Source: Cyanobacteriota bacterium (GTDB lineage Bacteria > Cyanobacteriota > Cyanobacteriia > Cyanobacteriales > Nostocaceae). Taken from it: a stretch of 15,190 nt of DNA. The stretch lies in contig JBJOKS010000056.1 in NCBI GenBank assembly GCA_046045965.1, positions 1 to 15,190 of the forward strand, given 5' to 3'. Each line of letters begins with the position of its first letter. Position 1 is the first letter of the stretch. Position numbers and translations under genes: made by a program. The notes under the pieces are model-generated. The model was not told the DNA's origin and did not search any database. It saw nothing but the letters and a program-made list of their open reading frames with translations. Shown in pieces: positions 1 through 14,989 of this stretch.

Positions 1-1923
1 TTTGGACTGACCAAGAGTTTAAATCACGAATGGGAAACTGTATTTTGTCGTTCCCTTGATATCAGTCCAGATTTAGATGCAGAAACATCGGTAAAATACA
101 TCCTTGCTGAAATTCAAGATCCCAATTTATTAGTTACAGAAGTAGGATATAGCAACAAAGGTAGATTTACTTTAGTTGCCGAACCTACTCCATTACCTAT
201 TATCAAATCCTCAATCCCCATTACCAATGACCAAGTATTTCTAGTCAGTGGTGGTGCAAAAGGAATAACTGCCCAATGTGTGATCAAATTAGCTCAAGAA
301 TATCAATGTAAATTCATTCTTTTAGGTCGTTCGAGTACAGAACCAGAACCAGTTTGGGCTGAGGGTTATGAAAATGAAGCTGAATTGAAACAGCGAATTA
401 TGGAAGATTTTCTCGCCAAAGGAGAAAAACCAACCCCCATCATGGTGCAGAGAAAATATCAAATAATTTCCTCACAACGAGAAATTCAAAATACATTGAA
501 ATCCATTGAAAAAGCAGGAGGAAAAGCTGAATATTTGAGCGTAGATGTTACAGATAGCGGTTTATTAACAGAAAAAATTAGCCCTGTAATTGAACGTTTA
601 GGAACGATAACCGGAATTATTCACGGTGCTGGCAACTTGGCTGATAAACGGATTGAAAAGAAAACAATTCAGGATTTGGAAACAGTTTACGCAGCCAAAG
701 TTAAGGGTTTAGAAAACCTGTTGCAATGTGTACCGCCAAGCCAACTACAACATTTAATATTATTTTCTTCAGTAGTTGGTTTTTATGGAAATGTGGGACA
801 ATCAGATTATGCAATGGCTAACGAAATTCTCAACAAATCAGCCCATTTAATTAAACATAAACACCCCAATTGTCATGTTGTTGCTATTAACTGGGGTCCC
901 TGGGATAGTGGGATGGTATCACCAGAATTAAAGAAAGCCTTTGCAGAAAGAGGAATTGAAACCATCCCCATAGAAATCGGTACACAAATGTTAGTTAATG
1001 AACTAAAAAATACCAATTCAGACACAACACAAGTAGTAATTGGTAGCCCTTTAGTTTATATTCCTCCCACCTTACCGAGTGAATTAAAAACCTATCGCAT
1101 TAAACGTCAATTAACATTAGAATCCAATCCATTTTTACACGATCATATCATCGCCGGTCGTCCAGTTCTTCCTGCTACCTGTGGACTTCTATGGATGGCT
1201 AACGCTTGCGAACAACTATATCCCGGTTTTAAAGCCTTTAGTTGTCCCAATTTCAAAGTTCTGAAAGGCATTGTCTTTGATGAAAATTCAGCAAGTGAAT
1301 ATACTCTGGAAATTCAAGAAGTTGCTAAAATTGAAAACAAAGAAATACATTTTTCTGCTAAAATTAGCAGTAGCACTTCCGAAGGTAAAATCAGATATCA
1401 TTTTAGTACAACTCTGATTTTAAAACGTGAAATTCCCACACCTCCCAACTATGAATTGTTGAACTTAAATCAAGATGAACAATTCCTCACCACAAATAAA
1501 TTACTTTATCAAAATGGGGGAGGTAGCCTATTTCACGGAACTATCTTTCAAGGTGTTAAATCAATCTTAAATACCAGTCCAGGTAAACTCACCATCGAAT
1601 GTAAATTACCGCAACCAACATTACAGCAACAGGGGCAATTTCCCGTTCAGACATTCAACCCTTATATAGCAGATGTGCAGATTCATTCCCTCTGGATTTG
1701 GACACAACACTTTCATCAAATAGGTTGTTTACCTTCAGAAATTCAAACCTTTGAACAATTTGCACCCGTTCCCTTTGGTGAAACATTTTATGTGACTTGT
1801 GAAGTCAAATCCAAGACAGAATCAAACGTAGTTGCTGATGTCATTACTCACAACAAACAAGGACAAATATATAACCGCATGATTGGCGCAAAAGGAACGG
1901 TTTTACCCAAGCAAATAGTATAG
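1..1923 (+). CDS. 5'-truncated PfaA/HglE-HglG-like iterative PKS: end of the KR structural subdomain, KR catalytic domain and C-terminal dehydratase (hot-dog) domain
   Basis: Frame 1 is open from base 1 (FGLTKSLNHEWETVFCRSLDISPDLD...QVFLVSGGAKGITAQC), so the GTG at 280 is internal. The NADPH motif SGGAKG lies at 247-264, upstream of that GTG. KR motifs are HGAGNLAD and GQSDYAMANE (Tyr at 808-810). The DH motif is DHIIAGRPVLP (HxxxGxxxxP, His at 1144-1146). Stop TAG at 1921-1923. Confidence 0.9.
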   Translation, partial: FGLTKSLNHEWETVFCRSLDISPDLDAETSVKYILAEIQDPNLLVTEVGYSNKGRFTLVAEPTPLPIIKSSIPITNDQVFLVSGGAKGITAQCVIKLAQEYQCKFILLGRSSTEPEPVWAEGYENEAELKQRIMEDFLAKGEKPTPIMVQRKYQIISSQREIQNTLKSIEKAGGKAEYLSVDVTDSGLLTEKISPVIERLGTITGIIHGAGNLADKRIEKKTIQDLETVYAAKVKGLENLLQCVPPSQLQHLILFSSVVGFYGNVGQSDYAMANEILNKSAHLIKHKHPNCHVVAINWGPWDSGMVSPELKKAFAERGIETIPIEIGTQMLVNELKNTNSDTTQVVIGSPLVYIPPTLPSELKTYRIKRQLTLESNPFLHDHIIAGRPVLPATCGLLWMANACEQLYPGFKAFSCPNFKVLKGIVFDENSASEYTLEIQEVAKIENKEIHFSAKISSSTSEGKIRYHFSTTLILKREIPTPPNYELLNLNQDEQFLTTNKLLYQNGGGSLFHGTIFQGVKSILNTSPGKLTIECKLPQPTLQQQGQFPVQTFNPYIADVQIHSLWIWTQHFHQIGCLPSEIQTFEQFAPVPFGETFYVTCEVKSKTESNVVADVITHNKQGQIYNRMIGAKGTVLPKQIV

Positions 1924-2010: not shown

Positions 2011-4818
2011 ATGAAAGAATTTGCCCAAAATCAACTTCCAAAAATGGCAATTATAGGCATGAATTGCCTTGTTAGTGGGCTTCAAGAATTAGATAGTTTT
2101 GAACGCAGTATTTACCAAGGTAAACAGGATTTTACACCTCTTACCTATAGTGAAACACCATCATTGCCAATTCTCTTAGCAGAAATTCAACAATTATCAC
2201 CACAACAACAATTAATGTTAAAAGTGGCTGATAATACTCTCAAAAATGCTAAACTGCGGCCAGAAACAAAAATTGCAGTTATTATGGTGAGTAAATTCCA
2301 AATTCACCACCAAAATAAATTAGCAAGTTATATTTCCCGGCTTTGGGATGCCACAAGTCCCGCTTTCGCAGAAGAAAATTCAGTTTTTTCAGCCTTAAAT
2401 TTAGCTCAAAAGCTATTAATAAATAAGCAAGCAGAGGCTGTTTTAGTAGCAGCAATGGACTTTGCTAAACAAGAAAATCACTGCACAGGTGTACATAGCC
2501 TCAGTTATGACAAAAACACTGATGGTACTTTAGCCGGAGAAGGTGCAGCGGCTGTAGTATTGCAACTTCAAGATATAGCCAAACAAGAAAATCATTGCAT
2601 ATATGCAGTAATTGATGCTGTAAGTGTGGTGCAAAATTCTCCACACCAACCAGAAGCCGTCACCCAAGCTTGTCAAACAGCTTTTGCACTGGCAGATATT
2701 GAAGCTCAAGATATTGGCTATTTGGAAGTTTATGCTAGTGGAATTCCCCAAGAAGATGCAGCAGAAATTCAAGGTTTAATTACAGCTTATAGAACTGGAG
2801 AAACAAATTTAAGTTGTGCTTTAGGTAGCGTCAAAGCTAACATTGGTAACACTCATACTGCATCAGGAATTATTAGCTTAATTAAAACAGCACTTTGTTT
2901 ATATCACCGCTATATTCCCGCAGTTCCCCAGTGGACTGGTGTAAAAAACCCCGATATTTGGTGTGCTAGTCCCTTTTATGTAGCCACAGAATCTAAACCC
3001 TGGTTTTTAGAGTCAGGTGCAAATAAAAGAATAGCTGCTATTAATAGCATAGAAGCCGATGGTAGTTATGTACACTTAATTTTGTCAGAAGAAACCAGTC
3101 AAATAGAACGCAGCAGCAAATATTTAGAACAAACGCCTTATCATTTATTTAGTATAGCTGCCAAAAATCAATCTTCACTTCTGGACCAAATTATTACACT
3201 GCAAAAAAATCTGGAAAATTCTCCTTCTCTATCTCAACTTGCCAGCCAAACATTTAGAGAATTTCAAAAATATCAAATTCCTAACCATCAAAATGCAAAT
3301 TACACCATAGCAATTTTGGCACGTAATCAACAAGAATTAACACGGGAAATAGACCGCGCAATTCAAGGTGTTAACATTGCTTTTGAGACAGGAAAAGATT
3401 GGCAAACTCCTATGGGTAGCTATTTTACAACCAACCCACAAGGAAAAAAAGGTAAAATTGCATTTGTTTATCCCGGTTCTTTCACATCTTATATTGGTAT
3501 AGGTCGCAATCTCTTCCGACTATTTCCCAAAATTTATGATGACCCAGTAATCAAGAACGTTTATGAAAGAGTTGCTAACATCGAAAAAATCATTTATCCC
3601 CGCAGCATCAATAAACTTGCAAAAAGACAACTAGAAGTCCTAGAACAGCAATTAATAGATGATCCAGTAACAATGCTAGAATCAGAAGTTGGCATTGCTG
3701 GACTTATGACTGCAATTCTCAAAAACTATTTTCAAATCCAATCTCAATCTGCTTTTGGTTATAGTCTTGGTGAAACTAGCATGATGTTAGCCCAAGGTAT
3801 TTGGACAAGCTTTAAAAATACCAGTGATTACTTAAACTCATCTCCTCTATTTAAAACCCAACTAGCTGGCCCAAAAAATGCAGTTCGTCAAGCTTGGGGA
3901 CTACCTTTAAATATCAATGATCAGGAATTTTGGAGCAACTACATTGTTATATGTCCAGTCTCCCAAGTTAAGGAAGCAATTAAACAGGAAGACCGCGTTT
4001 ATATCCCTTTAATTAATACACCCGAAGAAGTAGTAATTGCCGGAGAAACACAAGCTTGTCAAAGAGTAATTAAAAAACTCAAATGTGATGCTTTTCCCAC
4101 ATCAATAAATCATGTAATTCATTGTCAACCAATGCACTCCGAGTACAATGAACTCTTGAAAATCAACACCTTAGAGATTAAAGATATACCTGAATCAACT
4201 TTTTACTCTGCTGCAAATTACGAACCAATTACAATCGATAGTCAGACTATAGGAAAGAACATTGCTCAAAGTCTCTGTCAACAACTTGATTTCCCTCGTT
4301 TAATTAACCGTGTCTACGATGACAACATTAGAATATTTATTGAAGTAGGAGTTGGTAGCAACTGTTCGCGATGGATAAGTTCAACCCTCAAAGAAAAAGA
4401 ACATCTTGCTGTATCTGTAAATAGAAGGGGAGTAGATGATCATACTTCAATTATTAGAGCATTAGCGAAACTCGTCAGCCATCAAGTTGAATTAGATTTA
4501 TCACCTTTGTATTCTCTTTCTGCGATAACTACACAGCCACAAATCAAAGTAGAAACTAATCAAAATTTCAAAAATCTACCTTTGATTTCTCTAGAAGATG
4601 CACTTGCTCAAAAGCCAAATAAAATCTTAAAATCTATTCCCCCTCATCCTTTTAATTCTCAATATCAAAAATTGAGTGATAACAATGCACTAATGACTAA
4701 AGCCCACAGCTTTTTATTAAAGTCTCGCCAAGCATCATTACATCAAATAAATTTCCTGATTCAACAAAAAATAGACATCTACAAAAAGATAGTTGAGCAA
4801 GGAAAAAGAATTAAATAG
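2011..4818 (+). CDS. hglC: HglC/PfaB-like protein: degenerate ketosynthase-fold chain-length-factor domain plus acyltransferase
   Basis: KS-fold remnants are MAIIGM, EENS (at the catalytic Cys position), GEGAAAVVL, YLEVYASG and LGSVKANIGNT, with no catalytic Cys-His-His triad. AT motifs are FVYPGS, GYSLGE (Ser585 at 3763-3765), HVIHC and FIEVGVG. A GGAG RBS lies at 2000-2003. Confidence 0.8.
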   Translation: MKEFAQNQLPKMAIIGMNCLVSGLQELDSFERSIYQGKQDFTPLTYSETPSLPILLAEIQQLSPQQQLMLKVADNTLKNAKLRPETKIAVIMVSKFQIHHQNKLASYISRLWDATSPAFAEENSVFSALNLAQKLLINKQAEAVLVAAMDFAKQENHCTGVHSLSYDKNTDGTLAGEGAAAVVLQLQDIAKQENHCIYAVIDAVSVVQNSPHQPEAVTQACQTAFALADIEAQDIGYLEVYASGIPQEDAAEIQGLITAYRTGETNLSCALGSVKANIGNTHTASGIISLIKTALCLYHRYIPAVPQWTGVKNPDIWCASPFYVATESKPWFLESGANKRIAAINSIEADGSYVHLILSEETSQIERSSKYLEQTPYHLFSIAAKNQSSLLDQIITLQKNLENSPSLSQLASQTFREFQKYQIPNHQNANYTIAILARNQQELTREIDRAIQGVNIAFETGKDWQTPMGSYFTTNPQGKKGKIAFVYPGSFTSYIGIGRNLFRLFPKIYDDPVIKNVYERVANIEKIIYPRSINKLAKRQLEVLEQQLIDDPVTMLESEVGIAGLMTAILKNYFQIQSQSAFGYSLGETSMMLAQGIWTSFKNTSDYLNSSPLFKTQLAGPKNAVRQAWGLPLNINDQEFWSNYIVICPVSQVKEAIKQEDRVYIPLINTPEEVVIAGETQACQRVIKKLKCDAFPTSINHVIHCQPMHSEYNELLKINTLEIKDIPESTFYSAANYEPITIDSQTIGKNIAQSLCQQLDFPRLINRVYDDNIRIFIEVGVGSNCSRWISSTLKEKEHLAVSVNRRGVDDHTSIIRALAKLVSHQVELDLSPLYSLSAITTQPQIKVETNQNFKNLPLISLEDALAQKPNKILKSIPPHPFNSQYQKLSDNNALMTKAHSFLLKSRQASLHQINFLIQQKIDIYKKIVEQGKRIK

Positions 4819-4892: not shown

Positions 4893-6548
4893 ATGTTCAA
4901 CACAGAAAATAGCTTGAATCAAGACAATCATCTCCAGTTGTCCAACTTATTTATCAACCATCATCATACTTGGCAAGGTGATTTTAATAATGTTGCTTTT
5001 GATGCCGAAAAAATAAAATTAAAACTGAGGAATTTAGAAAAACCCTGTTATATAGTTAGAAATGAAGGGATAATTGGCATCACAAACGAAGGTAGTTTAT
5101 CTCATGTCAATAATGGTAAAACAGCCCAGATGGAAATGTTAATGGCTGTTCCTCCCTTAGCAATTCAACAATTAGGTAATGCAGATTTTCTCAATTATTA
5201 CGGCGTAAAATATGCCTATATGACTGGAGCAATGGCGCAGGGAATAGCATCAGAAGAAATGGTAATTGCACTAGGCAAAGAAAGAATTTTAAGTGTCTTT
5301 GGTGCAGGAGGTTTATCTCCTTCCCGTGTCGAGATAGCTATTAACAAAATTCAGCAAGCCTTAGATCAAAAACCCTACGCTTTTAACTTACTTCATAGTC
5401 CCAGTGAACCAGCCATTGAACGCCGTAGCATTGATTTATATCTCAAATATCAAGTCAGAATCATTGAAGCCTCGGCATTTTTAGATTTAAGTGACAACAT
5501 AGTTTATTATCGAGCCTCCGGCTTAAGTTTAAATTCAGCCAATCAAATCCAAATCAAAAATAAAGTCATTGCTAAAGTTTCCCGCCGCGAAGTTGCCATT
5601 AAATTTCTCCAACCTGCGCCTACAAAAATTCTCAAACAATTAGTTGAACAAGGTTTAATTACTGAATTACAAGCCACTCTTGCCAGCAAAATTCCTATGG
5701 CTGATGATATCACCGTAGAAGCAGATTCTGGAGGTCATACAGATAATCGTCCCCTCATTTGTTTATTACCTTCCATCTTAGAATTACGAGATGAAATTCA
5801 AAATAAATATAGGTATGAAAACCCCGTCAGAATTGGCGTAGCCGGCGGAATTTCTACACCCAAATCAGCCTTAGCTGCCTTTATCATGGGTGCTGCTTAT
5901 GTTGTCACAGGCTCCATTAATCAATCCTGTATTGAAGCCGGAACTTCTGAATACACCAAAGCATTATTAGCTCAAGCAGAAATGGCTGATGTGATGATGG
6001 CTCCCGCAGCAGATATGTTTGAAATGGGTGTAAAATTGCAAGTTCTTAAACGTGGCACACTCTTTCCTCTCCGCGCTCAAAAATTATATGAATTATACAA
6101 AAGTTACAACTCAATTGAAGAAATTCCCCCAGCCGAAAAAGAGAAATTAGAAAAGCAAATCTTGAAAAAAACTGTGCAAGAAGTTTGGCAAGAAACAGCT
6201 AATTATTTATCCCAACGCAACCCTGATAAATTAACTAAAGCAGCAAGTAATACTCAACTAAAAATGGCTCTGATTTTTCGCTGGTATTTAGGACTTTCTT
6301 CTCGGTGGTCTAACATGGGAGAAAAAGGTCGAGAAATTGACTATCAAATTTGGTGTGGACCTGCAATGGGTAGCTTTAATGATTGGGTACGAGGTTCATA
6401 TTTAGCTGAACCAAAAAATCGCCAAGTCGTAGAAATTGCTAACCACATTATGACAGGAGCAACATTTTTATATCGCATCCAAAACTTAAAAATGCAAGGA
6501 TTACAAATTGCAGATGAATACGGTCAATATCTTCCACAAAAATTATGA
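4893..6548 (+). CDS. pfaD: PfaD/HglA-family FMN-dependent trans-acting enoyl reductase
   Basis: Motifs GAMAQGIAS, EASAF, IAKVSRREVA, EADSGGHTDNRP, MAPAADMFEMGVKLQVLKRG and DYQIWCGPAMG; 551 aa; follows the HglC-like gene as hglA does. Confidence 0.95.
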   Translation: MFNTENSLNQDNHLQLSNLFINHHHTWQGDFNNVAFDAEKIKLKLRNLEKPCYIVRNEGIIGITNEGSLSHVNNGKTAQMEMLMAVPPLAIQQLGNADFLNYYGVKYAYMTGAMAQGIASEEMVIALGKERILSVFGAGGLSPSRVEIAINKIQQALDQKPYAFNLLHSPSEPAIERRSIDLYLKYQVRIIEASAFLDLSDNIVYYRASGLSLNSANQIQIKNKVIAKVSRREVAIKFLQPAPTKILKQLVEQGLITELQATLASKIPMADDITVEADSGGHTDNRPLICLLPSILELRDEIQNKYRYENPVRIGVAGGISTPKSALAAFIMGAAYVVTGSINQSCIEAGTSEYTKALLAQAEMADVMMAPAADMFEMGVKLQVLKRGTLFPLRAQKLYELYKSYNSIEEIPPAEKEKLEKQILKKTVQEVWQETANYLSQRNPDKLTKAASNTQLKMALIFRWYLGLSSRWSNMGEKGREIDYQIWCGPAMGSFNDWVRGSYLAEPKNRQVVEIANHIMTGATFLYRIQNLKMQGLQIADEYGQYLPQKL

Positions 6549-7879
6549 CCATGCCAGACAACAGAGAATTAAGTAGTCTGGAAGCAGCAATGGAAATTCT
6601 CAATAGCCGTGCTAAAACCTGGAATTTAGTTACTATTAGTCGCATTAACGGCAACCTCCAAGAAGCAGTTCTCAGACAGTCTTTAGATATTATCCAATAT
6701 CGCCATCCTCAACTCAATTCGCACATAATTTATTTGAGAAAACGTTTCTATTTTCAAACCGCAGGTACAGAAAGAATACCTTTGCAAATTGTTAATAATT
6801 TAGAAGAGGAAGAATGGCAAGATGTAGTTAATCAAGAAATGAATCAGGCAATAGATAGTAGTAAATCTCTGATGAGAGTTGTACTCATTACTATCCAAGA
6901 TCAGCCAAAAATTAATTATCTAATTTCCATCTTGCACCACGCAATTTCTGATGGTTTATCAAGCATTCAACTTCACTCGGAAATCTTAACTTATTATCAA
7001 AAACTTACATCGGGTGACACCATTCAAGAAGTTACTACCTTGGAACAACTACCACCCATTGAAAAACTACTACCCAAACATATACAAGGTTGGAAAGGAA
7101 ATCTCAGTAGCTTTTTATTGTTATTAAAACTGGGTTTTCACAAACTTTACAACCAACCACAAACATTAGGTTTTGAGAAATATGCACCCATTAATAAACG
7201 GAGTTGTGAAATTATTCATAAACAGATTTTATCAGATGTAACTGAAAATTTTGTTGCTCGATGTCGGCTAGAAAATACCACAGTAAATAGTGCTTTATGC
7301 GCCTTACTCATGTTAACAGTAGCTAGAAAAATTATCAAAGATAATCAAAAATATGTCCGAGTAAATTGCCTATCATACCTGGATTTACGCAGACGCTTAC
7401 AACCAGCAATTAATGAAGAAAACCTAGCTGTTTTAGCTACTTCTATGATGGGTTTTCACACCATAAAAACAAATACATCCTTGTGGGAACTAGCCAGGAA
7501 AGTCAAACCAAATTTAGACTTTGGTATTAAGCATGGTGATCTTTTCAATATGGTATTAATTGCCAAACACCTGATCAATTTTTGTTTTATTTTTCCCAAA
7601 CAAGTAGCTGCTACAGTTTCAGTATCTAACATTGGCAAAGTCAACATTCCCACAACTTATGGAGATTTGGAACTAGAAGAAATCAGTTTTGCCGGTTCTC
7701 ATTCTTTGTATGCAGGTATGTTTGTCATTCATACTGCCACTTTTCAAGGAAAAATGTTGTTAAATTTTGTATTTTCTCAACCTTCAATTAGTCGGGAGAC
7801 AATGGAAGAACTGGTAAACCAAGTTATCTCTTACATCTTTAATTTATCTTCAGATACCTTAGAAATTAGAGGTGCATAA
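6545..7879 (+). CDS. Stand-alone condensation-domain / PapA5-like (alcohol acyltransferase-type) acyltransferase
   Basis: HHAISDG (HHxxxDG, 6935-6955), RHPQL, TTVNSAL, DLRRRL and VSNIG motifs typical of the CAT/condensation-fold acyltransferases. 444 aa with no adenylation domain. ATGA overlap with the pfaD stop. Confidence 0.85.
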   Translation: MTMPDNRELSSLEAAMEILNSRAKTWNLVTISRINGNLQEAVLRQSLDIIQYRHPQLNSHIIYLRKRFYFQTAGTERIPLQIVNNLEEEEWQDVVNQEMNQAIDSSKSLMRVVLITIQDQPKINYLISILHHAISDGLSSIQLHSEILTYYQKLTSGDTIQEVTTLEQLPPIEKLLPKHIQGWKGNLSSFLLLLKLGFHKLYNQPQTLGFEKYAPINKRSCEIIHKQILSDVTENFVARCRLENTTVNSALCALLMLTVARKIIKDNQKYVRVNCLSYLDLRRRLQPAINEENLAVLATSMMGFHTIKTNTSLWELARKVKPNLDFGIKHGDLFNMVLIAKHLINFCFIFPKQVAATVSVSNIGKVNIPTTYGDLELEEISFAGSHSLYAGMFVIHTATFQGKMLLNFVFSQPSISRETMEELVNQVISYIFNLSSDTLEIRGA

Positions 7880-8185
7880 ATGGACGAAAACCTTGCCAAC
7901 TCACCTATGAAAAAGGCTGCTACTACCGCAGATATTCAAGCTTGGCTAGTTACTAACATTTCCTATATATTGGGAGTTAACCCAGAGGAAATAGATATTC
8001 GAGAACCGTTAGATAGCTATGGTTTAGATTCATCACAAGCTATGATTCTTGCAAGTAAAGCCGAGAAATTTCTGGGTTTTAAATTATCTCTAATTCATTT
8101 GTGGTATTATCCCACAATTGAAGAACTAGCACAACGGTTAGCTGAAGAATTAGAAAATTCTGAATCAGAAATTTTGCAGATATAA
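7880..8185 (+). CDS. Free-standing acyl carrier protein resembling the HglB/HetM N-terminal ACP
   Basis: IQAWLV...LGVNPEEIDIREPLDSYGLDSS (phosphopantetheine Ser51 at 8030-8032)...YPTIEELAQRL. The ATG directly follows the TAA of the acyltransferase, with an AGAGGT RBS at 7868-7873. Confidence 0.92.
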   Translation: MDENLANSPMKKAATTADIQAWLVTNISYILGVNPEEIDIREPLDSYGLDSSQAMILASKAEKFLGFKLSLIHLWYYPTIEELAQRLAEELENSESEILQI

Positions 8186-8319
8186 GCAATAAACAATTTG
8201 TAAAGATTCAGAATACAGAATAGTCAGCAGTGATAATTGCTTGAAAAATTGGCAAATATTCCAACTACTGAATTCTGACAACAATTTTAATATTTTCAAG
8301 TTTTTCCTCCTCTAAGACT

Positions 8320-8370
8320 GACACTTCGCACGAATGGAGGAAACATCATTCAGCGGAGTGTCTTCTTTTC
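8320..8370 (+). terminator. Candidate intrinsic terminator after the ACP gene
   Basis: GACACTTCGC (8320-8329) pairs with GCGGAGTGTC (8353-8362), with an inner GAATG/CATTC stem, followed by the pyrimidine tract TTCTTTTCTCTATTCTTT. Confidence 0.45.
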
Positions 8371-8381
8371 TCTATTCTTTG

Positions 8382-8494
8382 TATAGCAATCCTAAATAAT
8401 ATATGAACACCTCTTTTTCTCTACCTCTGCGCTCTCTGCGTCTGGAGCGGTTCGTTTTAAAAACTCCGTTCATAAATCAAATAGGATTGCTATA
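8382..8494. mobile_element. MITE-like miniature element (113 bp)
   Basis: 27-bp terminal inverted repeats, TATAGCAATCCTAAATAATATATGAAC (8382-8408) versus the reverse complement of 8468-8494: 23 of 27 match and the outer 13 are perfect. It has TA ends, internal CTCTGCG repeats and no ORF. Confidence 0.75.
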
Positions 8495-8521
8495 GTTCGT
8501 TAAAAACTGGGAGATTTAGTC

Positions 8522-10417
8522 ATGAACGCATCCGAAATTTTAGCGAAACTCACTCAACAAGGTGTGGAATTCTGGGTTGAAAATAGTAAACTGAATATTC
8601 GTTCTCCTAAAGGTGTAATTACCTCAGAAATACAAGCACAAATAGCCACATATAAAGGAGATATATTGGCATTATTACAGGAAATGAATATCGCTACAAA
8701 ATCTGCATCTGAACCTCTCAGTCAAGGAATAAGTTTACAAACAATTGGTAAATTAATTGGTGGTTTTGTCGGTGAATCACCTATAGGATATCAGCCACCA
8801 ATTATTAACCCGAAAATGATGGCTCAAAATCTCAGTATTACATTTAGACCTTTACCTCATGGATATGATCATCAAACTATTATTAAGTTTCGCCAAGAAT
8901 TAGCTATTAAGTTAAAAAACTTTGGCGTTACTGTCATACCTTGGCAGGAAGCAACCACAGAAATTTTCTATGATATTAAAATTCCTCTACTTAATTGGAA
9001 TCGCTCTTTAAAAATGAAGGGAGTTCGAGCAGAAATTGATGCAGTAATAGATGTGGAACGACCTAATTCATGGTTGAGAAAATTAGGAATTTTCTTTGCT
9101 GAAAATTTTTATAGTTTATCTTATCCCTGGCTCATAAATCAGCAAAAAATGTCAGTTGTCCAAATTGCTAAACTAAGTAGTTGGGCAGAAGATCATGCAG
9201 CTAAATATGTTGAAGATCCAACAAATACTCAAGTCATCATTATTGGTGAAATCGATCATGAATTTATAAATCCCTTAATCAAATATCAAGACAAGATTAG
9301 TATTGGTATCAATACACTCATTAAAACATTCTCAGAAATTGTCATTGGCGTATCTAGTGAGCAAATTTCTATTCTCAATATGAATCTATCAGATTCTATT
9401 TTTTCTAGAACAGAAATTGATGATTTTATTTCCAAATCACTAATTCCTAAAGTTTTTGTTCCTATCGCTCCCCTATTAATGAATAGATTTGAAATAGGAG
9501 AGTATAATCCTCATCTATCTAGCTATGCTCATCAATTAGTCAAACTAGGTCGAGAACTAGCCTCCACTGGTCTATTTCCATCAGGTTTTAAACTTGATGA
9601 AGTTATTAAAAGAAAGTCCCACAGAGATATTGTCAATGTCATCGTCAATGGTAGAACAGGAGTCTCTTATGGTTTTGTCGCTTATGTCGAACCTCCTTAC
9701 TATCTAGGAAAACAAGAAATAACTGCTAATGAGTGGGAAAACTTATTACCTGTTCCTGGATTTAGTAGTAGTGAAATTCGTAAAAATGAAGCAGGTAGAC
9801 ATTATATTAAAATCCTCATTGCCGGAGAGTATGTATTTAAGCAAATCCCTGATATTTGGTTACTTAGTTCTCGTTCTGGCTCAAATAAAACAGACTTAAA
9901 TCTTGAGCAAGATATCATTCGTATCGGCTTAAAAAATAATTTACATCTGCAATTACCACTAGGAAATCAGTCGCCTAAATTAGATGTAAAACCTTCTTAT
10001 GATATCTATGTCATGCTGGCAATTAGTCTAGCCGCTGCTTTATATACACCAGAATTAATTGAAAATGGTGCGCCAATTGTTCACTTTCATGGCTATCCTG
10101 CTTATGATTGGTTTAAAGAAAATGAATATTGCGTTGGTGTTGATAATCCTTCTGTACCATGTGGAACTTATGAATCAGGTGTGTTTAATTTTCTAGGTCT
10201 TTCTAACTTAGATAATCAACAAACAAAAAATGTCAAATTAGTTAGTTTAATAGAACCAGATCATGGCACAAATTTTATCGCTCGTGATATGGACTATCTA
10301 ATTGATAGGTTAAAAAATGGATGTTTAGCCGAACAAATTGAACTCGGTGGACAACATTTTGCTTCTCTTAAAGCTAATCTAAGTAATAGAAGTAAATTCA
10401 TAATTCATAATTCATAA
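8522..10417 (+). CDS. Uncharacterised 631-aa protein: TubC-like N-terminal docking domain, unknown middle region and putative class II aldolase/adducin-like C-terminal domain
   Basis: Residues 1-54 (EILAKLTQQGVEFWVENSKLNIRSPKGVITSEIQAQIATYKGDILALL) fit the TubC-N docking pattern. The C-terminal half carries, in order, SRSGSNK, KPSYD, IVHFHG, PCGTYE and EPDHG. A GGGAGA RBS lies at 8509-8514. Confidence 0.75.
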   Translation: MNASEILAKLTQQGVEFWVENSKLNIRSPKGVITSEIQAQIATYKGDILALLQEMNIATKSASEPLSQGISLQTIGKLIGGFVGESPIGYQPPIINPKMMAQNLSITFRPLPHGYDHQTIIKFRQELAIKLKNFGVTVIPWQEATTEIFYDIKIPLLNWNRSLKMKGVRAEIDAVIDVERPNSWLRKLGIFFAENFYSLSYPWLINQQKMSVVQIAKLSSWAEDHAAKYVEDPTNTQVIIIGEIDHEFINPLIKYQDKISIGINTLIKTFSEIVIGVSSEQISILNMNLSDSIFSRTEIDDFISKSLIPKVFVPIAPLLMNRFEIGEYNPHLSSYAHQLVKLGRELASTGLFPSGFKLDEVIKRKSHRDIVNVIVNGRTGVSYGFVAYVEPPYYLGKQEITANEWENLLPVPGFSSSEIRKNEAGRHYIKILIAGEYVFKQIPDIWLLSSRSGSNKTDLNLEQDIIRIGLKNNLHLQLPLGNQSPKLDVKPSYDIYVMLAISLAAALYTPELIENGAPIVHFHGYPAYDWFKENEYCVGVDNPSVPCGTYESGVFNFLGLSNLDNQQTKNVKLVSLIEPDHGTNFIARDMDYLIDRLKNGCLAEQIELGGQHFASLKANLSNRSKFIIHNS

Positions 10418-10422: not shown

Positions 10423-10498
10423 AGGGAATAGGTGGTAGGTGACAGGTAGAAAGTGATCCTCCCCATCTCCCTAGCTTCGCGGAAGTCAAAAGTCAAAA

Positions 10499-10681
10499 GT
10501 TTTAAAAGTTTATGGCGATTAGAAAGATGCCTCCGGCACGCTTCGCGAACGCTACTACACAAACTAAGTCCACCTCCGTGGACTAACGAAAAATTGAGAG
10601 TTTGAAACCCATGAAGATGGGTTTTGTCTGTGTAGCCGCGACTTATAGTCGCCAAGGCTTTTCTTTTCAAACAACCTCTTA
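10499..10681. mobile_element. Composite MITE-like palindromic repeat with a nested 21-nt insert
   Basis: Arms TGGCGATTAGAAA...CTACACAAAC and GTCTGTGTAGCCGCGACTTATAGTCGCCA are inverted relative to each other. Internal hairpins are at 10567-10584, 10605-10624 and 10638-10652. The right end CTTTTCAAACAACCTCTTA has only a partial left partner, GTTTTAAAAG (10499-10508). Confidence 0.6.
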
Positions 10682-10753: not shown

Positions 10754-11761
10754 ATGAACACCAATTCCAAAACATTACTGATTACGGGAATAGATAATTT
10801 TATTGGTTTACGTGCTGCTGAATTATCTTTAGAGCGAGGAATGAAAGTTCGTGGTTTACAAACTTCTGTAAAAACCAAAAGCACTACTAATTTAGATGCT
10901 GATTTAGTGATAGGTAACATAACAGATTTGGCAATTACCAAACAAGCTTGTCAGGGAGTAGATATTATTTTTCATACAGAACAACTGGCTGAAGAAACCG
11001 GCGACATCAAAAAATTTCGAGAAATAAATGTTGGTGGTACACTAAATATAGCTCAAGCTGCCAAAAATGCTGGTGTAAAAATTTTTGTCCATCTTTCTAG
11101 CGTGCTAGTTTATGGCTTTAACTATCCTCATCAAGTTACTGAATCAGACGCACTTTCTGGAGAAAATAACCCCTATTGTCAGACGAAAATAGAAGCCGAA
11201 TCTGCGCTTTTAAAATTGAATTCACCGCCAGATTTTAATATTATTATTATCCGCGCTGGTGATGTTTACGGACCAGGTAGTATTCCTTGGGTAGTACGTC
11301 CACTTTTATTAATGCGTCAAAATTTCTTTGCCTATGCCAATGATGGTAAAGGTGTAAGTAATCATCTCTATATAGATAACCTCATTGATGCTATATTTTT
11401 GGCAATTGAAAAAGAACCATCTGAAGAAATATCTGGAGAAATATTTAATATCACAGATGGTCAAGAAACTTCCTGGAAAGAGTATTTCACAAATTTAGCT
11501 GCAATTGAAGGTTTAGATGGTTTCATGTCTCTACCTAAAGATGAAATGAAATTATTATTGCAAGTGCGTCGTCAAGGACAGAAACTGTTGCGAAAAAAAG
11601 CCGATATTCTGCCAGAATCTCTAGATTTTATCACTCGTCCTTATGCCTATTCCATCGCCAAAGCTAAAACTATGTTGGGTTATCAGCCAAAAATTGATTT
11701 GTCCGAGGGAATGCGTCGTACTCATGAATGGTTGAAAAAAACCGATATCCAAGAATTGTAG
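10754..11761 (+). CDS. NAD-dependent epimerase/dehydratase family protein (extended SDR)
   Basis: LLITGIDNFIG (variant of TGxxGxxG), INVGGT, FVHLSSVLVYG, PYCQTK (YxxxK, Y141/K145), IRAGDVYGPG and AKTMLGYQP; 335 aa. Confidence 0.9.
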   Translation: MNTNSKTLLITGIDNFIGLRAAELSLERGMKVRGLQTSVKTKSTTNLDADLVIGNITDLAITKQACQGVDIIFHTEQLAEETGDIKKFREINVGGTLNIAQAAKNAGVKIFVHLSSVLVYGFNYPHQVTESDALSGENNPYCQTKIEAESALLKLNSPPDFNIIIIRAGDVYGPGSIPWVVRPLLLMRQNFFAYANDGKGVSNHLYIDNLIDAIFLAIEKEPSEEISGEIFNITDGQETSWKEYFTNLAAIEGLDGFMSLPKDEMKLLLQVRRQGQKLLRKKADILPESLDFITRPYAYSIAKAKTMLGYQPKIDLSEGMRRTHEWLKKTDIQEL

Positions 11762-11779
11762 GCATTCAGGAGTCAGGAG

Positions 11780-11799
11780 GGGCGAACGGCCGTTCGCCC
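11780..11799. repeat. Perfect 20-bp REP-like palindrome GGGCGAACGGCCGTTCGCCC within AGGAGTC-type heptamers
   Basis: Self-complementary 20-mer followed by GTACA, flanked by CAGGAGTCAGGA and AGAGTCAGAA. Confidence 0.8.
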
Positions 11800-12030
11800 G
11801 TACAAGAGTCAGAACATTTGAAAAATGGTTAGATGATTAAGTGTAAGTTTTAGTGAGTTTTAGTGAGTTTAGGCTTTTCGCCTCAGTGTAAATCACTGCG
11901 CTACGTGGCGTAAACTCTAGAATAGTTAAATTAACTACATTTACGCCATAAAGCAAGAATTATGGCAGGATGGAAACAAGCTCGTGCAACAAGAAGTCCA
12001 AAAGCTGGTTTTCACTCTGAGGAACTTCAT

Positions 12031-12207: not shown

Positions 12208-12486
12208 ATGACTCCAGACTACTCAGAAACTTACATCAATCATCCAACGTGGGGTTTACTATATAGGATCTGTATGGTTGATGATAACCAGGATCTGTTT
12301 ACTACACTTTATGCCCAACGCTTATTTTTTTTGGTAACAAATGACGTTAAAGGTATTAAATTTCAGTCTATCGGTCGGACTGAAGCGAGAATGATGCTGG
12401 AAAATCGTTTACGTACTTTGCGCCGCAGTGGCAAGCCTCAGGAGTACGATCAGCTTCAAAGTGTTTTCCAACGCACATTCCAATGA
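12208..12486 (+). CDS. pipX: PII-interacting protein X, NtcA coactivator
   Basis: ETYINHPTWGLLY, LFTTLYAQRLFFLV and ENRLRTLRR; 92 aa; directly upstream of pipY. Confidence 0.97.
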   Translation: MTPDYSETYINHPTWGLLYRICMVDDNQDLFTTLYAQRLFFLVTNDVKGIKFQSIGRTEARMMLENRLRTLRRSGKPQEYDQLQSVFQRTFQ

Positions 12487-13187
12487 CAAGTTCGATTTGT
12501 GAACGTATTGCTACCATTCGCGCCTCTCTTTCCCCTTCAGTGCGGTTAATTGCTGTTAGTAAGCAAATACCAACCGAACTGATGCGGGAAGCATACAGCG
12601 CGGGTATTCGTGATTTTGGTGAAAGTCGCATCCAAGAAGCTGCCAGTAAACAAACTCAGTTGCAAGACTTGCCGGATATTACTTGGCACTTCATTGGCAC
12701 TTTACAAAGCAACAAAGCCAAAAAAGCTCTAGAATTATTTGATTGGATTCACTCTGTAGATAATCTACATATAGCCCAGCGTCTGGATACCCTGGCGCAA
12801 CAGCTGGGAGTGAGTCCCTTGGTTTGCTTACAAGTCAAAATTCTCCCCGATCCTAGCAAGTCTGGCTGGAGCATACCCCAACTATTAGCTGACTTGGCAG
12901 CACTTGACCAATGCAAAAATTTGCAAATTCAAGGTTTGATGACAATTCCCCCTCGTGGCTTGGATGAGAGGGAAATTTTGAATGTCTTTAATCATACCCA
13001 TAAACTAGCCCAAGAAATTGGATCACAAAAATGGGGAAATATCAAAATGCAGCATCTATCTATGGGTATGTCTGGAGATTATCAATTAGCAATACAAGCA
13101 GGTGCAACAATGGTCAGATTAGGGACTATTTTGTTTGGGCATCGCTCCCCCATTTCCCACATCTCACCCGATGTAACTGTATCTTAA
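12483..13187 (+). CDS. pipY: PLP-binding homeostasis protein (YggS/PLPBP family)
   Basis: LIAVSK (PLP lysine), FGESRIQE, WHFIGTLQSNK, IHSVD, GLMTIPP, LSMGMSGDY and GATMVRLGT. ATGA overlap with pipX. Confidence 0.96.
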   Translation: MTSSICERIATIRASLSPSVRLIAVSKQIPTELMREAYSAGIRDFGESRIQEAASKQTQLQDLPDITWHFIGTLQSNKAKKALELFDWIHSVDNLHIAQRLDTLAQQLGVSPLVCLQVKILPDPSKSGWSIPQLLADLAALDQCKNLQIQGLMTIPPRGLDEREILNVFNHTHKLAQEIGSQKWGNIKMQHLSMGMSGDYQLAIQAGATMVRLGTILFGHRSPISHISPDVTVS

Positions 13188-13499
13188 AAAACTCAGCACT
13201 GATAACCAGGTCAGTGCCTGTTGCTTAAAAATTGGTAGCCAGATATAGACTTGACAAATGTAATTACTAAGACCAAATTAGAGGTAAAGAACTTTTCATT
13301 ACCCAAACTTTAGGATATAATTTTGACTCATTGTTATGTCCATATAAAGTTCTTTCTAGAACAGTATTTTCTTTATGAAAACCTGTACTAGAGGACACAA
13401 ACAGCAATAAAATTGCTCAAGGCAGCAGCTACTATCTATACTGGCTACCAAAATTTACAGCCGGATCAATTAAGGTAATTTCCACTGGGAGCGTAGACA

Positions 13500-14093
13500 A
13501 TGAACAATATATTTTCCAAACTTAGGGATTTTGTGGGTTTGAATGAGCAAGTAGAATACGAATACTACGAAGAGGAGCAAGATAACGATAGCTACCAAAA
13601 TCTGTATCAACAAGAAAATCCTCAACCTGCTCCACAAGAAACCCCTGCTCCTAATCGACGTTGGCGTGAACCCTCCTCTACAATGGGAGAAGAAGTAGCA
13701 GCAACAGGATCAAAGCCTATGAGTAATGTGATTGGTATGCCAGGCGCAATTAATGGAATTTCTGAAGTTTTAGTCCTCGAACCCCGCACTTTTGAAGAAA
13801 TGCCCCAGGCAATTCAAGCATTACGTGAGCGCAAGTCCGTAGTATTGAACTTAACAATCATGGACCCAGATCAGGCTCAACGGGCTGTAGATTTTGTGGC
13901 GGGTGGTACTTATGCTCTAGATGGACATCAAGAGCGTATTGGCGAAAGTATCTTTTTGTTTACACCCAGCTGTGTGCAAGTCAGCACCCAAGGCGGTTTT
14001 TTACATGAAGTACCCCAACCAGCAGCACGTCCCGTTCGTCCTACAGGTACAACTCCCACTTGGGGTAGTGAACCCAACCGGATGGCACAATAA
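13500..14093 (+). CDS. sepF: Cell division protein SepF (Cdv2/YlmF)
   Basis: N-terminal amphipathic helix [10 protein letters not shown], an acidic linker, and C-terminal [25 protein letters not shown]...[11 protein letters not shown]...IFLFTP. GGGAG RBS upstream. Confidence 0.97.
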
Positions 14094-14103
14094 TGAAGTT
14101 AAA

Positions 14104-14180
14104 TTAGTCGTTTGTCCCTGGTGCTGATGCTGACAAATGACTAATGACCAATAACTAAATGACTATTAACTAAATGACTA
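14104..14180. repeat. AATGACT/AAATGAC-type STRR array with an upstream inverted copy
   Basis: TGACAAATGACTAATGACCAATAACTAAATGACTATTAACTAAATGACTA at 14131-14180. TTAGTCGTTTGTC (14104-14116) can pair with GACAAATGACTAA (14132-14144). Confidence 0.75.
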
Positions 14181-14989
14181 TTAAATTTGGTTTAATTGGT
14201 GGCGGGGTAATGGGAGAAGCTCTCTTATCCCGCCTTATTGCGCGAGGAATGTATCAGGGTTCTGAAGTCATAGTCAGTGAACCCCAAGAGTCTCGCCGGA
14301 GTTTCTTGCAGCAGCAATATGGGGTAACTGTAACGACGGATAATTGTCTGGTGTTATCTCAGACTCAAGAAGCTGTAATGTTAGCGGTGAAGCCCCAGGT
14401 ATTTAGTGCGATCGCTCAAGAATTAGCAGATATATTACCTATAGAACATTCACCTCTAATTATTTCTATTTTGGCAGGTGTGCCTTTAAAACCTCTAGAA
14501 GCAGCTTTTCCCCAATTGCCTGTTGTTCGCGCTATGCCTAATACTCCTGCTACAGTAGGCGCTGGAATAACAGCTATTTGTTTAGGTGCTTATACTCAGC
14601 CTAGCCATCAGCAAACCGCACAGGAAATTTTTTCCGCTGTGGGGGAAGTGGTAGAAGTTCCAGAATCTTTAATGGATGCAGTGACAGGTTTATCTGGTAG
14701 TGGTCCTGCCTATGTGGCGTTGATGATCGAAGCTTTATCTGATGGGGGTGTGGCTGCGGGTTTACCCAGAGCAGTGGCTAAACAGTTAGCTTTGCATACA
14801 GTTTTGGGAACGGCTAAACTCATAGAAGAAACAAAAATCCACCCCGCAGAATTGAAAGATAGAGTTACCAGTCCTGGGGGGACAACTATTGCAGGAGTGA
14901 GCGAGTTGGAGAAGGCTGGTTTTCGTTCTGCTTTAATTGAAGCGGTGAAAGCTGCTGCTCATCGTTCTCAGGAGTTGGGGAAAGGGTGA
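14174..14989 (+). CDS. proC: Pyrroline-5-carboxylate reductase
   Basis: GLIGGGVMG, LAVKPQ, RAMPNTP, TGLSGSGPAY, LKDRVTSPGGTTIAG; 271 aa. Confidence 0.98.
   Translation: MTIKFGLIGGGVMGEALLSRLIARGMYQGSEVIVSEPQESRRSFLQQQYGVTVTTDNCLVLSQTQEAVMLAVKPQVFSAIAQELADILPIEHSPLIISILAGVPLKPLEAAFPQLPVVRAMPNTPATVGAGITAICLGAYTQPSHQQTAQEIFSAVGEVVEVPESLMDAVTGLSGSGPAYVALMIEALSDGGVAAGLPRAVAKQLALHTVLGTAKLIEETKIHPAELKDRVTSPGGTTIAGVSELEKAGFRSALIEAVKAAAHRSQELGKG
14408..14415. repeat. HIP1 octamer GCGATCGC
   Basis: Exact match inside proC; the only one I found in the window. Confidence 0.9.

Follow-up and report, generated by a model that had tools for sequence, protein, structure and literature searches.

How an acyl chain leaves a Pfa/Hgl-type assembly line that has no reductase at its end is the question raised by a 15,190-nucleotide stretch of a Nostocaceae genome (Cyanobacteriota bacterium, assembly GCA_046045965.1, contig JBJOKS010000056.1; hereafter the window, at its full length). 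After the fused hglE/G synthase gene it carries, in order, hglC, hglA, an acyltransferase gene, the gene of a stand-alone acyl carrier protein (ACP), a gene for a 631-aa protein and that of an SDR (short-chain dehydrogenase/reductase). Together with contig C51 of the same genome it is an 'hgl-like island' in the sense of Perez Gallego et al. 2025 (PMC11804610). A first-pass annotation of the window took the acyltransferase to be the off-loading enzyme that replaces HglB, transferring the chain to an alcohol, sugar or amine. Its structural core holds: the line, of Pfa/Hgl type, has a conserved end that lacks a reductase and includes an intact PapA5/condensation-family acyltransferase, and an acylated, wax-like product is plausible. 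The off-loading role is not supported: the ACP tail and synteny point instead to the NglG-like gene at 8522-10417, which that annotation left out, and the acyltransferase is likely a tailoring O-acyltransferase for the released diol.

A conserved end without a reductase

HglB, which releases the chain in canonical heterocyst glycolipid synthesis, is an ACP fused to a thioester reductase domain, and the window ACP, which ends after 101 aa, does not have this structure. No trace of a reductase was found in the 336-nt spacer that follows it: when the reductase part of the HglB of the same genome was compared with the window by tblastn there was no match in 8101-8600 (E<=10) and none window-wide (E<=1e-3). 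The acyltransferase matches PapA_C (9.8e-20), Condensation (4.9e-10) and AATase (3.2e-8) in the hidden Markov model comparison that had been proposed for it, and its HHAISDG motif is intact, with H131 and H132 in place.

The junctions described earlier are also real. The stop of the enoyl reductase (ER) gene overlaps the acyltransferase start (ATGA, 6545-6548), and the acyltransferase stop TAA directly abuts the ATG of the ACP (7877-7882). Tight coupling is nevertheless specific to the lineage. Among the loci L035-L095 in which these genes adjoin (n=16), the gap between ER and acyltransferase is at most 10 nt in three and that between acyltransferase and ACP in nine, and elsewhere the gaps reach ~245 nt. 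Conserved translational coupling as a sign of partnership between acyltransferase and ACP was rejected, as the gaps vary among relatives.

The ACP tail and the docking domain of the next gene product

The ACP (PP-binding, 1.5e-13) ends in an acidic short linear motif (SLiM), ESEILQI. An acidic-hydrophobic C-terminal tail of this kind is present in 36 of 37 stand-alone ACPs encoded just upstream of an NglG-like gene and in none of nine other small ACPs; it recurs in six of the eight polyketide synthase (PKS) proteins that occupy the same position, one miss being an ACP-NglG fusion. A probable partner is the next protein, which over its first 55 residues resembles beta-hairpin docking domains of solved structure (AerJ 8aqq, E 5e-11; TubC, EpoB and Kj12). 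Such domains bind carrier tails of this type through the last five residues of the tail, according to the available text of PMC9113145, and a charged-hydrophobic carrier tail followed by an N-terminal TubC_N domain on the downstream enzyme is the composition of a SLiM/beta-hairpin docking pair. In all but one (L057) of 41 fetched loci a carrier domain lies directly upstream of the NglG-like gene, whether as a stand-alone ACP, as the last module of a modular PKS or fused to a fatty acyl-AMP ligase (FAAL) as FAAL-ACP (L072). Because of the C-terminal motif and synteny we assign the ACP to the next gene, and the ACP likely docks via its acidic tail onto the NglG-like protein. Tail and docking domain also covary in the 43 of 59 pairs that could be parsed (N25 goes with 21 of 23 Q tails, and N with 4 of 20 E tails), a description that is confounded by kinship. 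Two natural fusions were seen in the same family, docking-NglG-thioesterase (P0250, 837 aa) and FAAL-ACP-NglG followed by a sulfotransferase (L072:8807-12661, 1284 aa); such proteins are minimal systems for biochemistry.

The first-pass annotation had allowed that the ACP might be a recent truncation of hglB found only in this strain, in which case the arrangement would be a strain-specific relic. Its 54-55% identity to the ACP of the HglB of the same genome would fit such an origin, as would one family in which an HglB ACP and the stand-alone ACP group together. Against it, the same tail recurs on stand-alone ACPs of ~100 aa from many genera, and in a tree of 65 ACP domains (83 columns, backbone unresolved) the window ACP falls in a starred 17-row clade of stand-alone ACPs with its own HglB outside. 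Because relatives keep the stand-alone ACP beside a full hglB, which it follows in L058-L062, L066 and L081, it is not a recently clipped HglB; recent truncation was discarded on these two grounds, and we give it next to no weight. An old duplication from an HglB-type ACP is likely, a grade set by the unresolved backbone and by the one mixed family. Compared with release by HglB, then, the paralogous ACP and the synthase genes are shared, whereas the present line lacks a reductase, its ACP carries a docking tail, and the predicted release would add a carbon instead of reducing C1.

An NglG-family protein with a predicted aldolase fold

The 631-aa protein is predicted to comprise the beta-hairpin docking domain (~1-55), a middle domain and a class II aldolase fold (~329-625). 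Its AlphaFold model (pLDDT 79.5, pTM 0.81) finds class II aldolases in Foldseek at E 3e-5 to 8e-4, and residues 329-625 align to RhaD in VIA-align with Z 13.0 and a root-mean-square deviation (rmsd) of 3.8 over 189 residues; as modeled, the fold is that of the class II aldolases RhaD and FucA. Eleven of 12 inspected positions (R378, G384, S452, G453, K456, S492, D494, H521, H523, E578 and H581) are invariant in 65 of 65 aligned homologs. The spacing of S452 and D494 equals that of S75 and E117 in RhaD (42 residues), in a register that hhalign leaves unconfirmed. By analogy with aldolases, H521, H523 and H581 would be the metal histidines, D494 the acidic catalytic residue, and S452-G453 and S492 parts of the phosphate pocket. 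A profile of 65 NglG-like proteins found nothing better than E 0.98 among PDB sequences, and ESM Atlas returned one uninformative match at 0.76. The middle domain (residues 98-317) gives an alignment to the CoaBC C-terminal domain (5int; Z 9.9, rmsd 4.0, 153 residues), which we note as a lead only.

The combination of a docking domain with an aldolase-like C-terminal domain, placed after the last carrier of a line that has no release domain, is the architecture of NglG, and by this predicted architecture the protein belongs to the NglG family. NglG comes from the nostochloroside (ngl) cluster of Glasser et al. 2024 (PMC10849952, cited throughout from the portions of its text available). The C21 chain of nostochlorosides, which is built from palmitate, bears a vicinal diol, and NglG was proposed there to terminate synthesis through sugar incorporation and C-C cleavage (Suppl. 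Note 3). Homologs 56-58% identical to the window protein lie in clusters of ngl architecture, in which the NglG-like gene comes after FAAL, ACP, an unnamed ~465-aa gene and PKS genes, and the last ketosynthase (KS) is of the C-Q-H type in five of the eight terminal modules checked, as described for NglF. The window shares with NglF-NglG-NglH (PMC10849952) an acidic-tailed carrier, a docking plus aldolase-like protein and an SDR, without a thioesterase or reductase release domain. The published ngl cluster differs in having FAAL, a CylC halogenase, a modular PKS and glycosyltransferase and CylK-type genes with no acyltransferase, whereas the present island pairs an iterative Pfa/Hgl synthase with a stand-alone ACP and includes an acyltransferase.

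The acyltransferase co-occurs with NglG

Matches to the NglG-like protein occur in 123 of 301 genomes of the family and 43 of 401 of the order, and matches to the acyltransferase in 137 of the 301 family genomes. Proximity was scored for the best 150 of 182 acyltransferase matches and for 143 NglG-like places, two split genes having been merged. Among the matches listed, 86 of the 87 with at least 54% identity have an NglG-like gene no more than 6 kb away, and the 87th abuts a broken NglG-like copy. Judged by gap size, 60 of the 86 are placed as here, 13 directly before NglG, eight further upstream and five downstream; the 63 listed matches at 40-53% identity divide into 25 downstream of NglG and 38 elsewhere. 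The number of copies per NglG place is zero in 50, one in 78, two in 12 and three in three. The 37 Pfa-type NglG loci are a non-random set of stretches, none longer than 20 kb and some cut off at contig edges. The acyltransferase without hglB is present in 20 of them, hglB without the acyltransferase in six, both in one (L081) and neither in ten.

These distributions bear directly on the proposal that the acyltransferase is the main off-loader, which in place of HglB would take the chain from the ACP and pass it to an alcohol, sugar, glycolipid or amine as independent acceptor. PapA5 takes acyl chains from PKS carriers in the assembly of phthiocerol dimycocerosate (PDIM), and fabclavine had been offered as a further analogy. 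The intact HHxxxDG motif, the slot between hglA and ACP, which is the hglB slot in other islands, and the near exclusivity of acyltransferase and hglB would all suit such a role. On the other hand, the ACP tail points to NglG, and the position and number of the acyltransferase genes vary. Because 16 of the 37 loci lack the acyltransferase within the stretch fetched and one has both, release appears not to need it, and it does not appear to be a strict substitute for hglB. The zeamine pathway, which the first-pass annotation had cited as a precedent, cuts the other way: in the available text of PMC5811116 it is the reductase Zmn14 that is proposed to free the Pfa chain, and the condensation enzyme Zmn19 then takes the freed product as its acceptor. 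Zeamine synthesis resembles the present system in pairing a Pfa-like chain with a stand-alone condensation enzyme and differs in that a thioester reductase performs the release and Zmn19 forms an amide, drawing on a peptide-polyketide donor; its order of events, release and then use as an acceptor, fits the order proposed here by analogy. Taken together, we consider off-loading by the acyltransferase unlikely.

The preferred role, tailoring of a released product, is likely because the acyltransferase tracks NglG, shifts in position, is present in one to three copies, is missing in 16 of 37 loci and once coexists with hglB. Further support comes from the nostochlorosides, where fatty-acid esters of an NglG-pathway product exist and the acyltransferase lies outside ngl; the authors found none in ngl for nostochlorosides C-G (PMC10849952). 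A candidate can be named. In the N. punctiforme RNA-seq table of that paper, in the part available, Npun_R1292 is PfaD, R1289 an ACP, R1288 a condensation-domain protein and R1287 a TubC_N protein; Npun_R1288 would be a candidate for the enzyme that Glasser et al. did not locate in ngl. The trio of ACP, NglG and acyltransferase also occurs without an adjacent synthase in five genomes (G484, G437, G451, G507 and G533), three of which have a single PfaD match genome-wide, and in G484 and G437 the PfaD match adjoins hglB. One genome that is 98% complete (G500) has an intact island and no HglB match at 1e-30. A search for related loci among the genome contigs gave one locus. At L095 (G433) the island keeps hglD and ends acyltransferase-ACP-NglG-SDR-glycosyltransferase, with hglB in another island of the genome.

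A second line of evidence comes from distant NglG relatives that have no docking domain, found at 80 metagenome loci. No PapA-like neighbour was found among the 80; an unrelated PlsC-type acyltransferase lies upstream in 29, directly adjacent in 18, where 58 of the 80 have at least 900 nt of upstream sequence. Because two unrelated acyltransferase families accompany the NglG family, this suggests that the NglG-family product is an acyl acceptor.

The same metagenome loci (L106-L185) show a separate association. A histidine kinase lies directly downstream in 60 of the 64 that have enough flank, two representative kinases carry HisKA_7TM, and a PlsC-type acyltransferase or an acyl-CoA ligase is often nearby. 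The pairing looks like a signal synthase with its receptor, judged from gene content. The alpha-hydroxyketone autoinducers CAI-1 and LAI-1 would, we presume, fit the predicted product of these relatives.

Identity of the acyltransferase

With PapA_C and Condensation domains and an HHxxxDG motif, the protein belongs to the PapA/condensation family; it scores 70 bits against one NCBIfam PapA5 model (cut-off 396) and 39.5 bits against another (cut-off 716), below both cut-offs. All of the 120 top homologs have HHxxxD, as do 49 of 50 distinct locus proteins; the one exception is an N-truncated open reading frame (ORF). Likeness to the PapA5/PDIM system extends to a stand-alone, HHxxxDG, CoA-dependent acyltransferase fold, a long-chain-diol PKS and a dedicated exporter; apart from the scores, the difference would lie in the acceptor, here an odd-chain vicinal diol from an aldolase-type release. 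The closest solved sequence is AzeD (8S6L; E 1e-22 with a single sequence and 1e-52 with a profile), far ahead of PapA5 (1q9j, 1.5e-10). AzeD is a stand-alone condensation-family dehydratase with Pro at the first His (PDB 8S6L; bioRxiv 10.64898/2026.07.17.738954), and its rank among PDB sequences raises the alternative that the window protein is a dehydratase acting on a pathway intermediate. Both are stand-alone condensation-family proteins, but all 120 homologs of the window protein keep HHxxxD, whose first His is Pro in AzeD, and the island already contains dehydratase (DH) domains, so that we regard dehydration as highly improbable.

More distant members of the family occur in other settings. 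A second, divergent PapA-like gene of the same genome (C46, L024:1217-2494; 27% identity, HHCIGDG) has no PKS neighbours. A paralogous group (L084-L089, 43-49% identity) is found apart from PKS genes, on the downstream side of a ~250-275-aa gene that encodes a HAD hydrolase in the three scanned.

A proposed order of release and acylation

We propose, with somewhat more confidence than doubt, that the ACP delivers its chain to an NglG-type release reaction that would yield an odd-chain diol or ketol, and that O-acylation then gives a wax-like ester. The fused HglE/G, HglC and HglA would build a long, reduced acyl chain for transfer to the ACP, whose tail would bind the docking domain of the NglG-like protein. 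Dihydroxyacetone phosphate (DHAP) or another ketose phosphate could then, as its metal enediolate, attack the thioester, and C-C cleavage would leave R-CO-CH2OH, a 1-hydroxy-2-ketone one carbon longer than the chain, which the SDR may reduce to a 1,2-diol. A His132-dependent O-acyl transfer onto the released alcohol would give the wax-like ester, for export by the divergent DevBCA pump. For the acyl donor there are two candidates. One is an ordinary fatty acyl-ACP, to which the stearate of nostochloroside C points; the other is a second chain bound to the synthase, as in PDIM, and with that donor the first-pass idea would in part survive. Because the aldolase fold also houses oxygenases and decarboxylases, DHAP chemistry is only one option, and oxygenase or decarboxylase chemistry is another.

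The order of the last two steps could be reversed, with a chain hydroxyl acylated on line while tethered to the ACP and before release by NglG. In most close relatives the acyltransferase adjoins the ACP, Hgl-type chains bear hydroxyls, and nostochlorosides C-G are esterified at a mid-chain hydroxyl (PMC10849952). Yet the acyltransferase has no docking-domain match in Pfam, unacylated and acylated nostochlorosides co-occur (PMC10849952), and where genera carry two or three copies in tandem downstream of NglG, as some do, stepwise acylation of a free polyol is an equally good explanation. We judge on-line acylation improbable, slightly more so than off-loading by the acyltransferase.

Several points weigh against release by NglG followed by acylation of the diol. 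The near exclusivity of acyltransferase and hglB also fits replacement, though it follows lineage. The nostochloroside ester is on the mid-chain O6 and not on the vicinal diol (PMC10849952). AzeD, the nearest solved sequence of the acyltransferase, is a dehydratase. For the NglG-like protein, profile alignment by hhalign gave no significant match to RhaD, FucA or AraD of E. coli (probability 4-5%, in the wrong register), so the residue equivalences to aldolases are drawn from the fold match and motif spacing, and the same fold includes the oxygenases and decarboxylases POD, NovR and 2z7b. Neither NglG nor Npun_F3362 is named among its best 120 matches, family membership being by architecture, and the activity of NglG is itself a published hypothesis. 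The SDR is missing from many related islands, and no product of an hgl-like island is known.

Implications

A wider reading would join three elements: that hgl-like islands make a PDIM-like exported wax, an aldolase-released odd-chain vicinal diol bearing one to three PapA-type esters; that the trio, as a portable termination module, can also draw on the canonical heterocyst synthase where a genome has one PfaD gene only; and that Npun_R1288 is the missing acyltransferase of nostochlorosides C-G. As a conjunction this is speculative and we hold it with more doubt than belief. The hgl-like island is in print as an orphan and NglG as a hypothesis. Additional hgl islands are present in 259 of 494 island-bearing genomes, many of them hgl-like, and no product is given for the latter in the available text of Perez Gallego et al. 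2025 (PMC11804610). In that text and one supplement file the acyltransferase, the ACP and the docking-domain gene are unmentioned, and the terms condensation, PapA, acyltransferase, phthiocerol and TubC are absent from the one supplement file; the SI Appendix narrative, which may lie outside that file, may bear on novelty. Our literature searches found no description of the ACP-NglG-acyltransferase module or of the role of the acyltransferase. Nothing was found for hglE with cyanobacteria and PapA5, nothing relevant for wax esters or diols or for chain release by an aldolase, and among work since 2023 on NglG, hgl-like islands or vicinal diols only PMC11804610 and PMC10849952 were relevant. 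The available portions of PMC8406957, PMC8073705 and PMC12305045 added nothing on the module.

The analysis proposes a role for each gene at the end of the island. Hgl-like islands are widespread in Nostocales, including bloom formers, and the structure class to seek would be odd-chain 1,2-diols or ketols together with their fatty esters, which screens targeted at glycolipids would miss. Such waxes could affect the properties of the envelope in cyanobacteria that form blooms, and could be of use as biomarkers in sediments. The ACP, NglG-type enzyme and acyltransferase together offer a compact system for probing a chain-release chemistry that is as yet unproven.

The island and its surroundings

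The window is contig C56 of the source genome, and the remainder of the cluster is on C51, which holds the N-terminal KS-AT-ACP-ACP part of the fused synthase (AT, acyltransferase domain) and is joined to the window by an identical 42-aa overlap. The KS triad of the fused hglE/G synthase is intact (C-H-H) and two ACP motifs are present, whereas in the hglC-like protein the triad positions are E/Y/N, hence non-catalytic, with the AT motif GYSLG. C51 also carries devA, devC and devB and a 107-aa ORF, divergent from the fused hglE/G. Across both contigs hgdCB accompanies hglE/F/G, hglC and hglA in about five ORFs, the divergent exporter arrangement described in PMC11804610, and the island is without hglD and hglB and is the second beside a canonical one. 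That canonical island, on C2, has hglD, a 505-aa hglB and hetN; hglD and hglB occur in the genome only there, and the window hglA is 71% identical to its C2 copy. The hgl-like island contains no halogenase or glycosyltransferase, no reductase of the HglB or Zmn14 type, and no aminotransferase or nonribosomal peptide synthetase.

Table 1. Genes of the hgl-like island within the window (KR, ketoreductase; PS-DH, polyketide synthase dehydratase)
Feature	Position	Strand	Basis
C-terminal KR-DH part of fused hglE(F)G / PfaA-like synthase	1..1923	+	Pfam KR, PS-DH
hglC-like non-catalytic KS/chain-length factor with PfaB-type AT	2011..4818	+	TIGR02816 above cut-off
hglA/PfaD enoyl reductase (ER)	4893..6548	+	TIGR02814, 662 bits, above cut-off
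PapA5/condensation-family acyltransferase, 444 aa	6545..7879	+	Pfam; HHAISDG with H131, H132, D136
Stand-alone ACP, 101 aa, paralog of the HglB ACP domain	7880..8185	+	PP-binding; Ser51 in GLDS; tail ESEILQI
NglG-family protein, 631 aa, predicted chain-release enzyme	8522..10417	+	TubC_N; 8aqq/2jug matches; aldolase-fold model
Extended SDR/epimerase-type reductase, candidate ketone reductase	10754..11761	+	Pfam; 72% identity with the SDR next to the canonical island

The 107-aa ORF between devB and hglE (L021:6160-6483, C51) has no Pfam match and is 86-100% identical across hgl-like islands; it is possibly a dedicated regulator. A promoter and terminator scan was at chance level (24 versus 27.2 and 3 versus 5.1). 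In one freshwater metatranscriptome (share 0.09), short contigs with 0-1 differences fell on hglA, the hglA/acyltransferase junction (6310-6612), the acyltransferase, the NglG-like gene and the SDR; we do not count these as evidence, given possible DNA carry-over. Short dispersed repeats, in roughly 10-20 genome copies, occupy the island spacers at 8366-8486, 10498-10658 and 11762-11802. Beyond the island, 12208-14989 holds an ordinary pipX-pipY-sepF-proC operon, which adjoins the island in several relatives.

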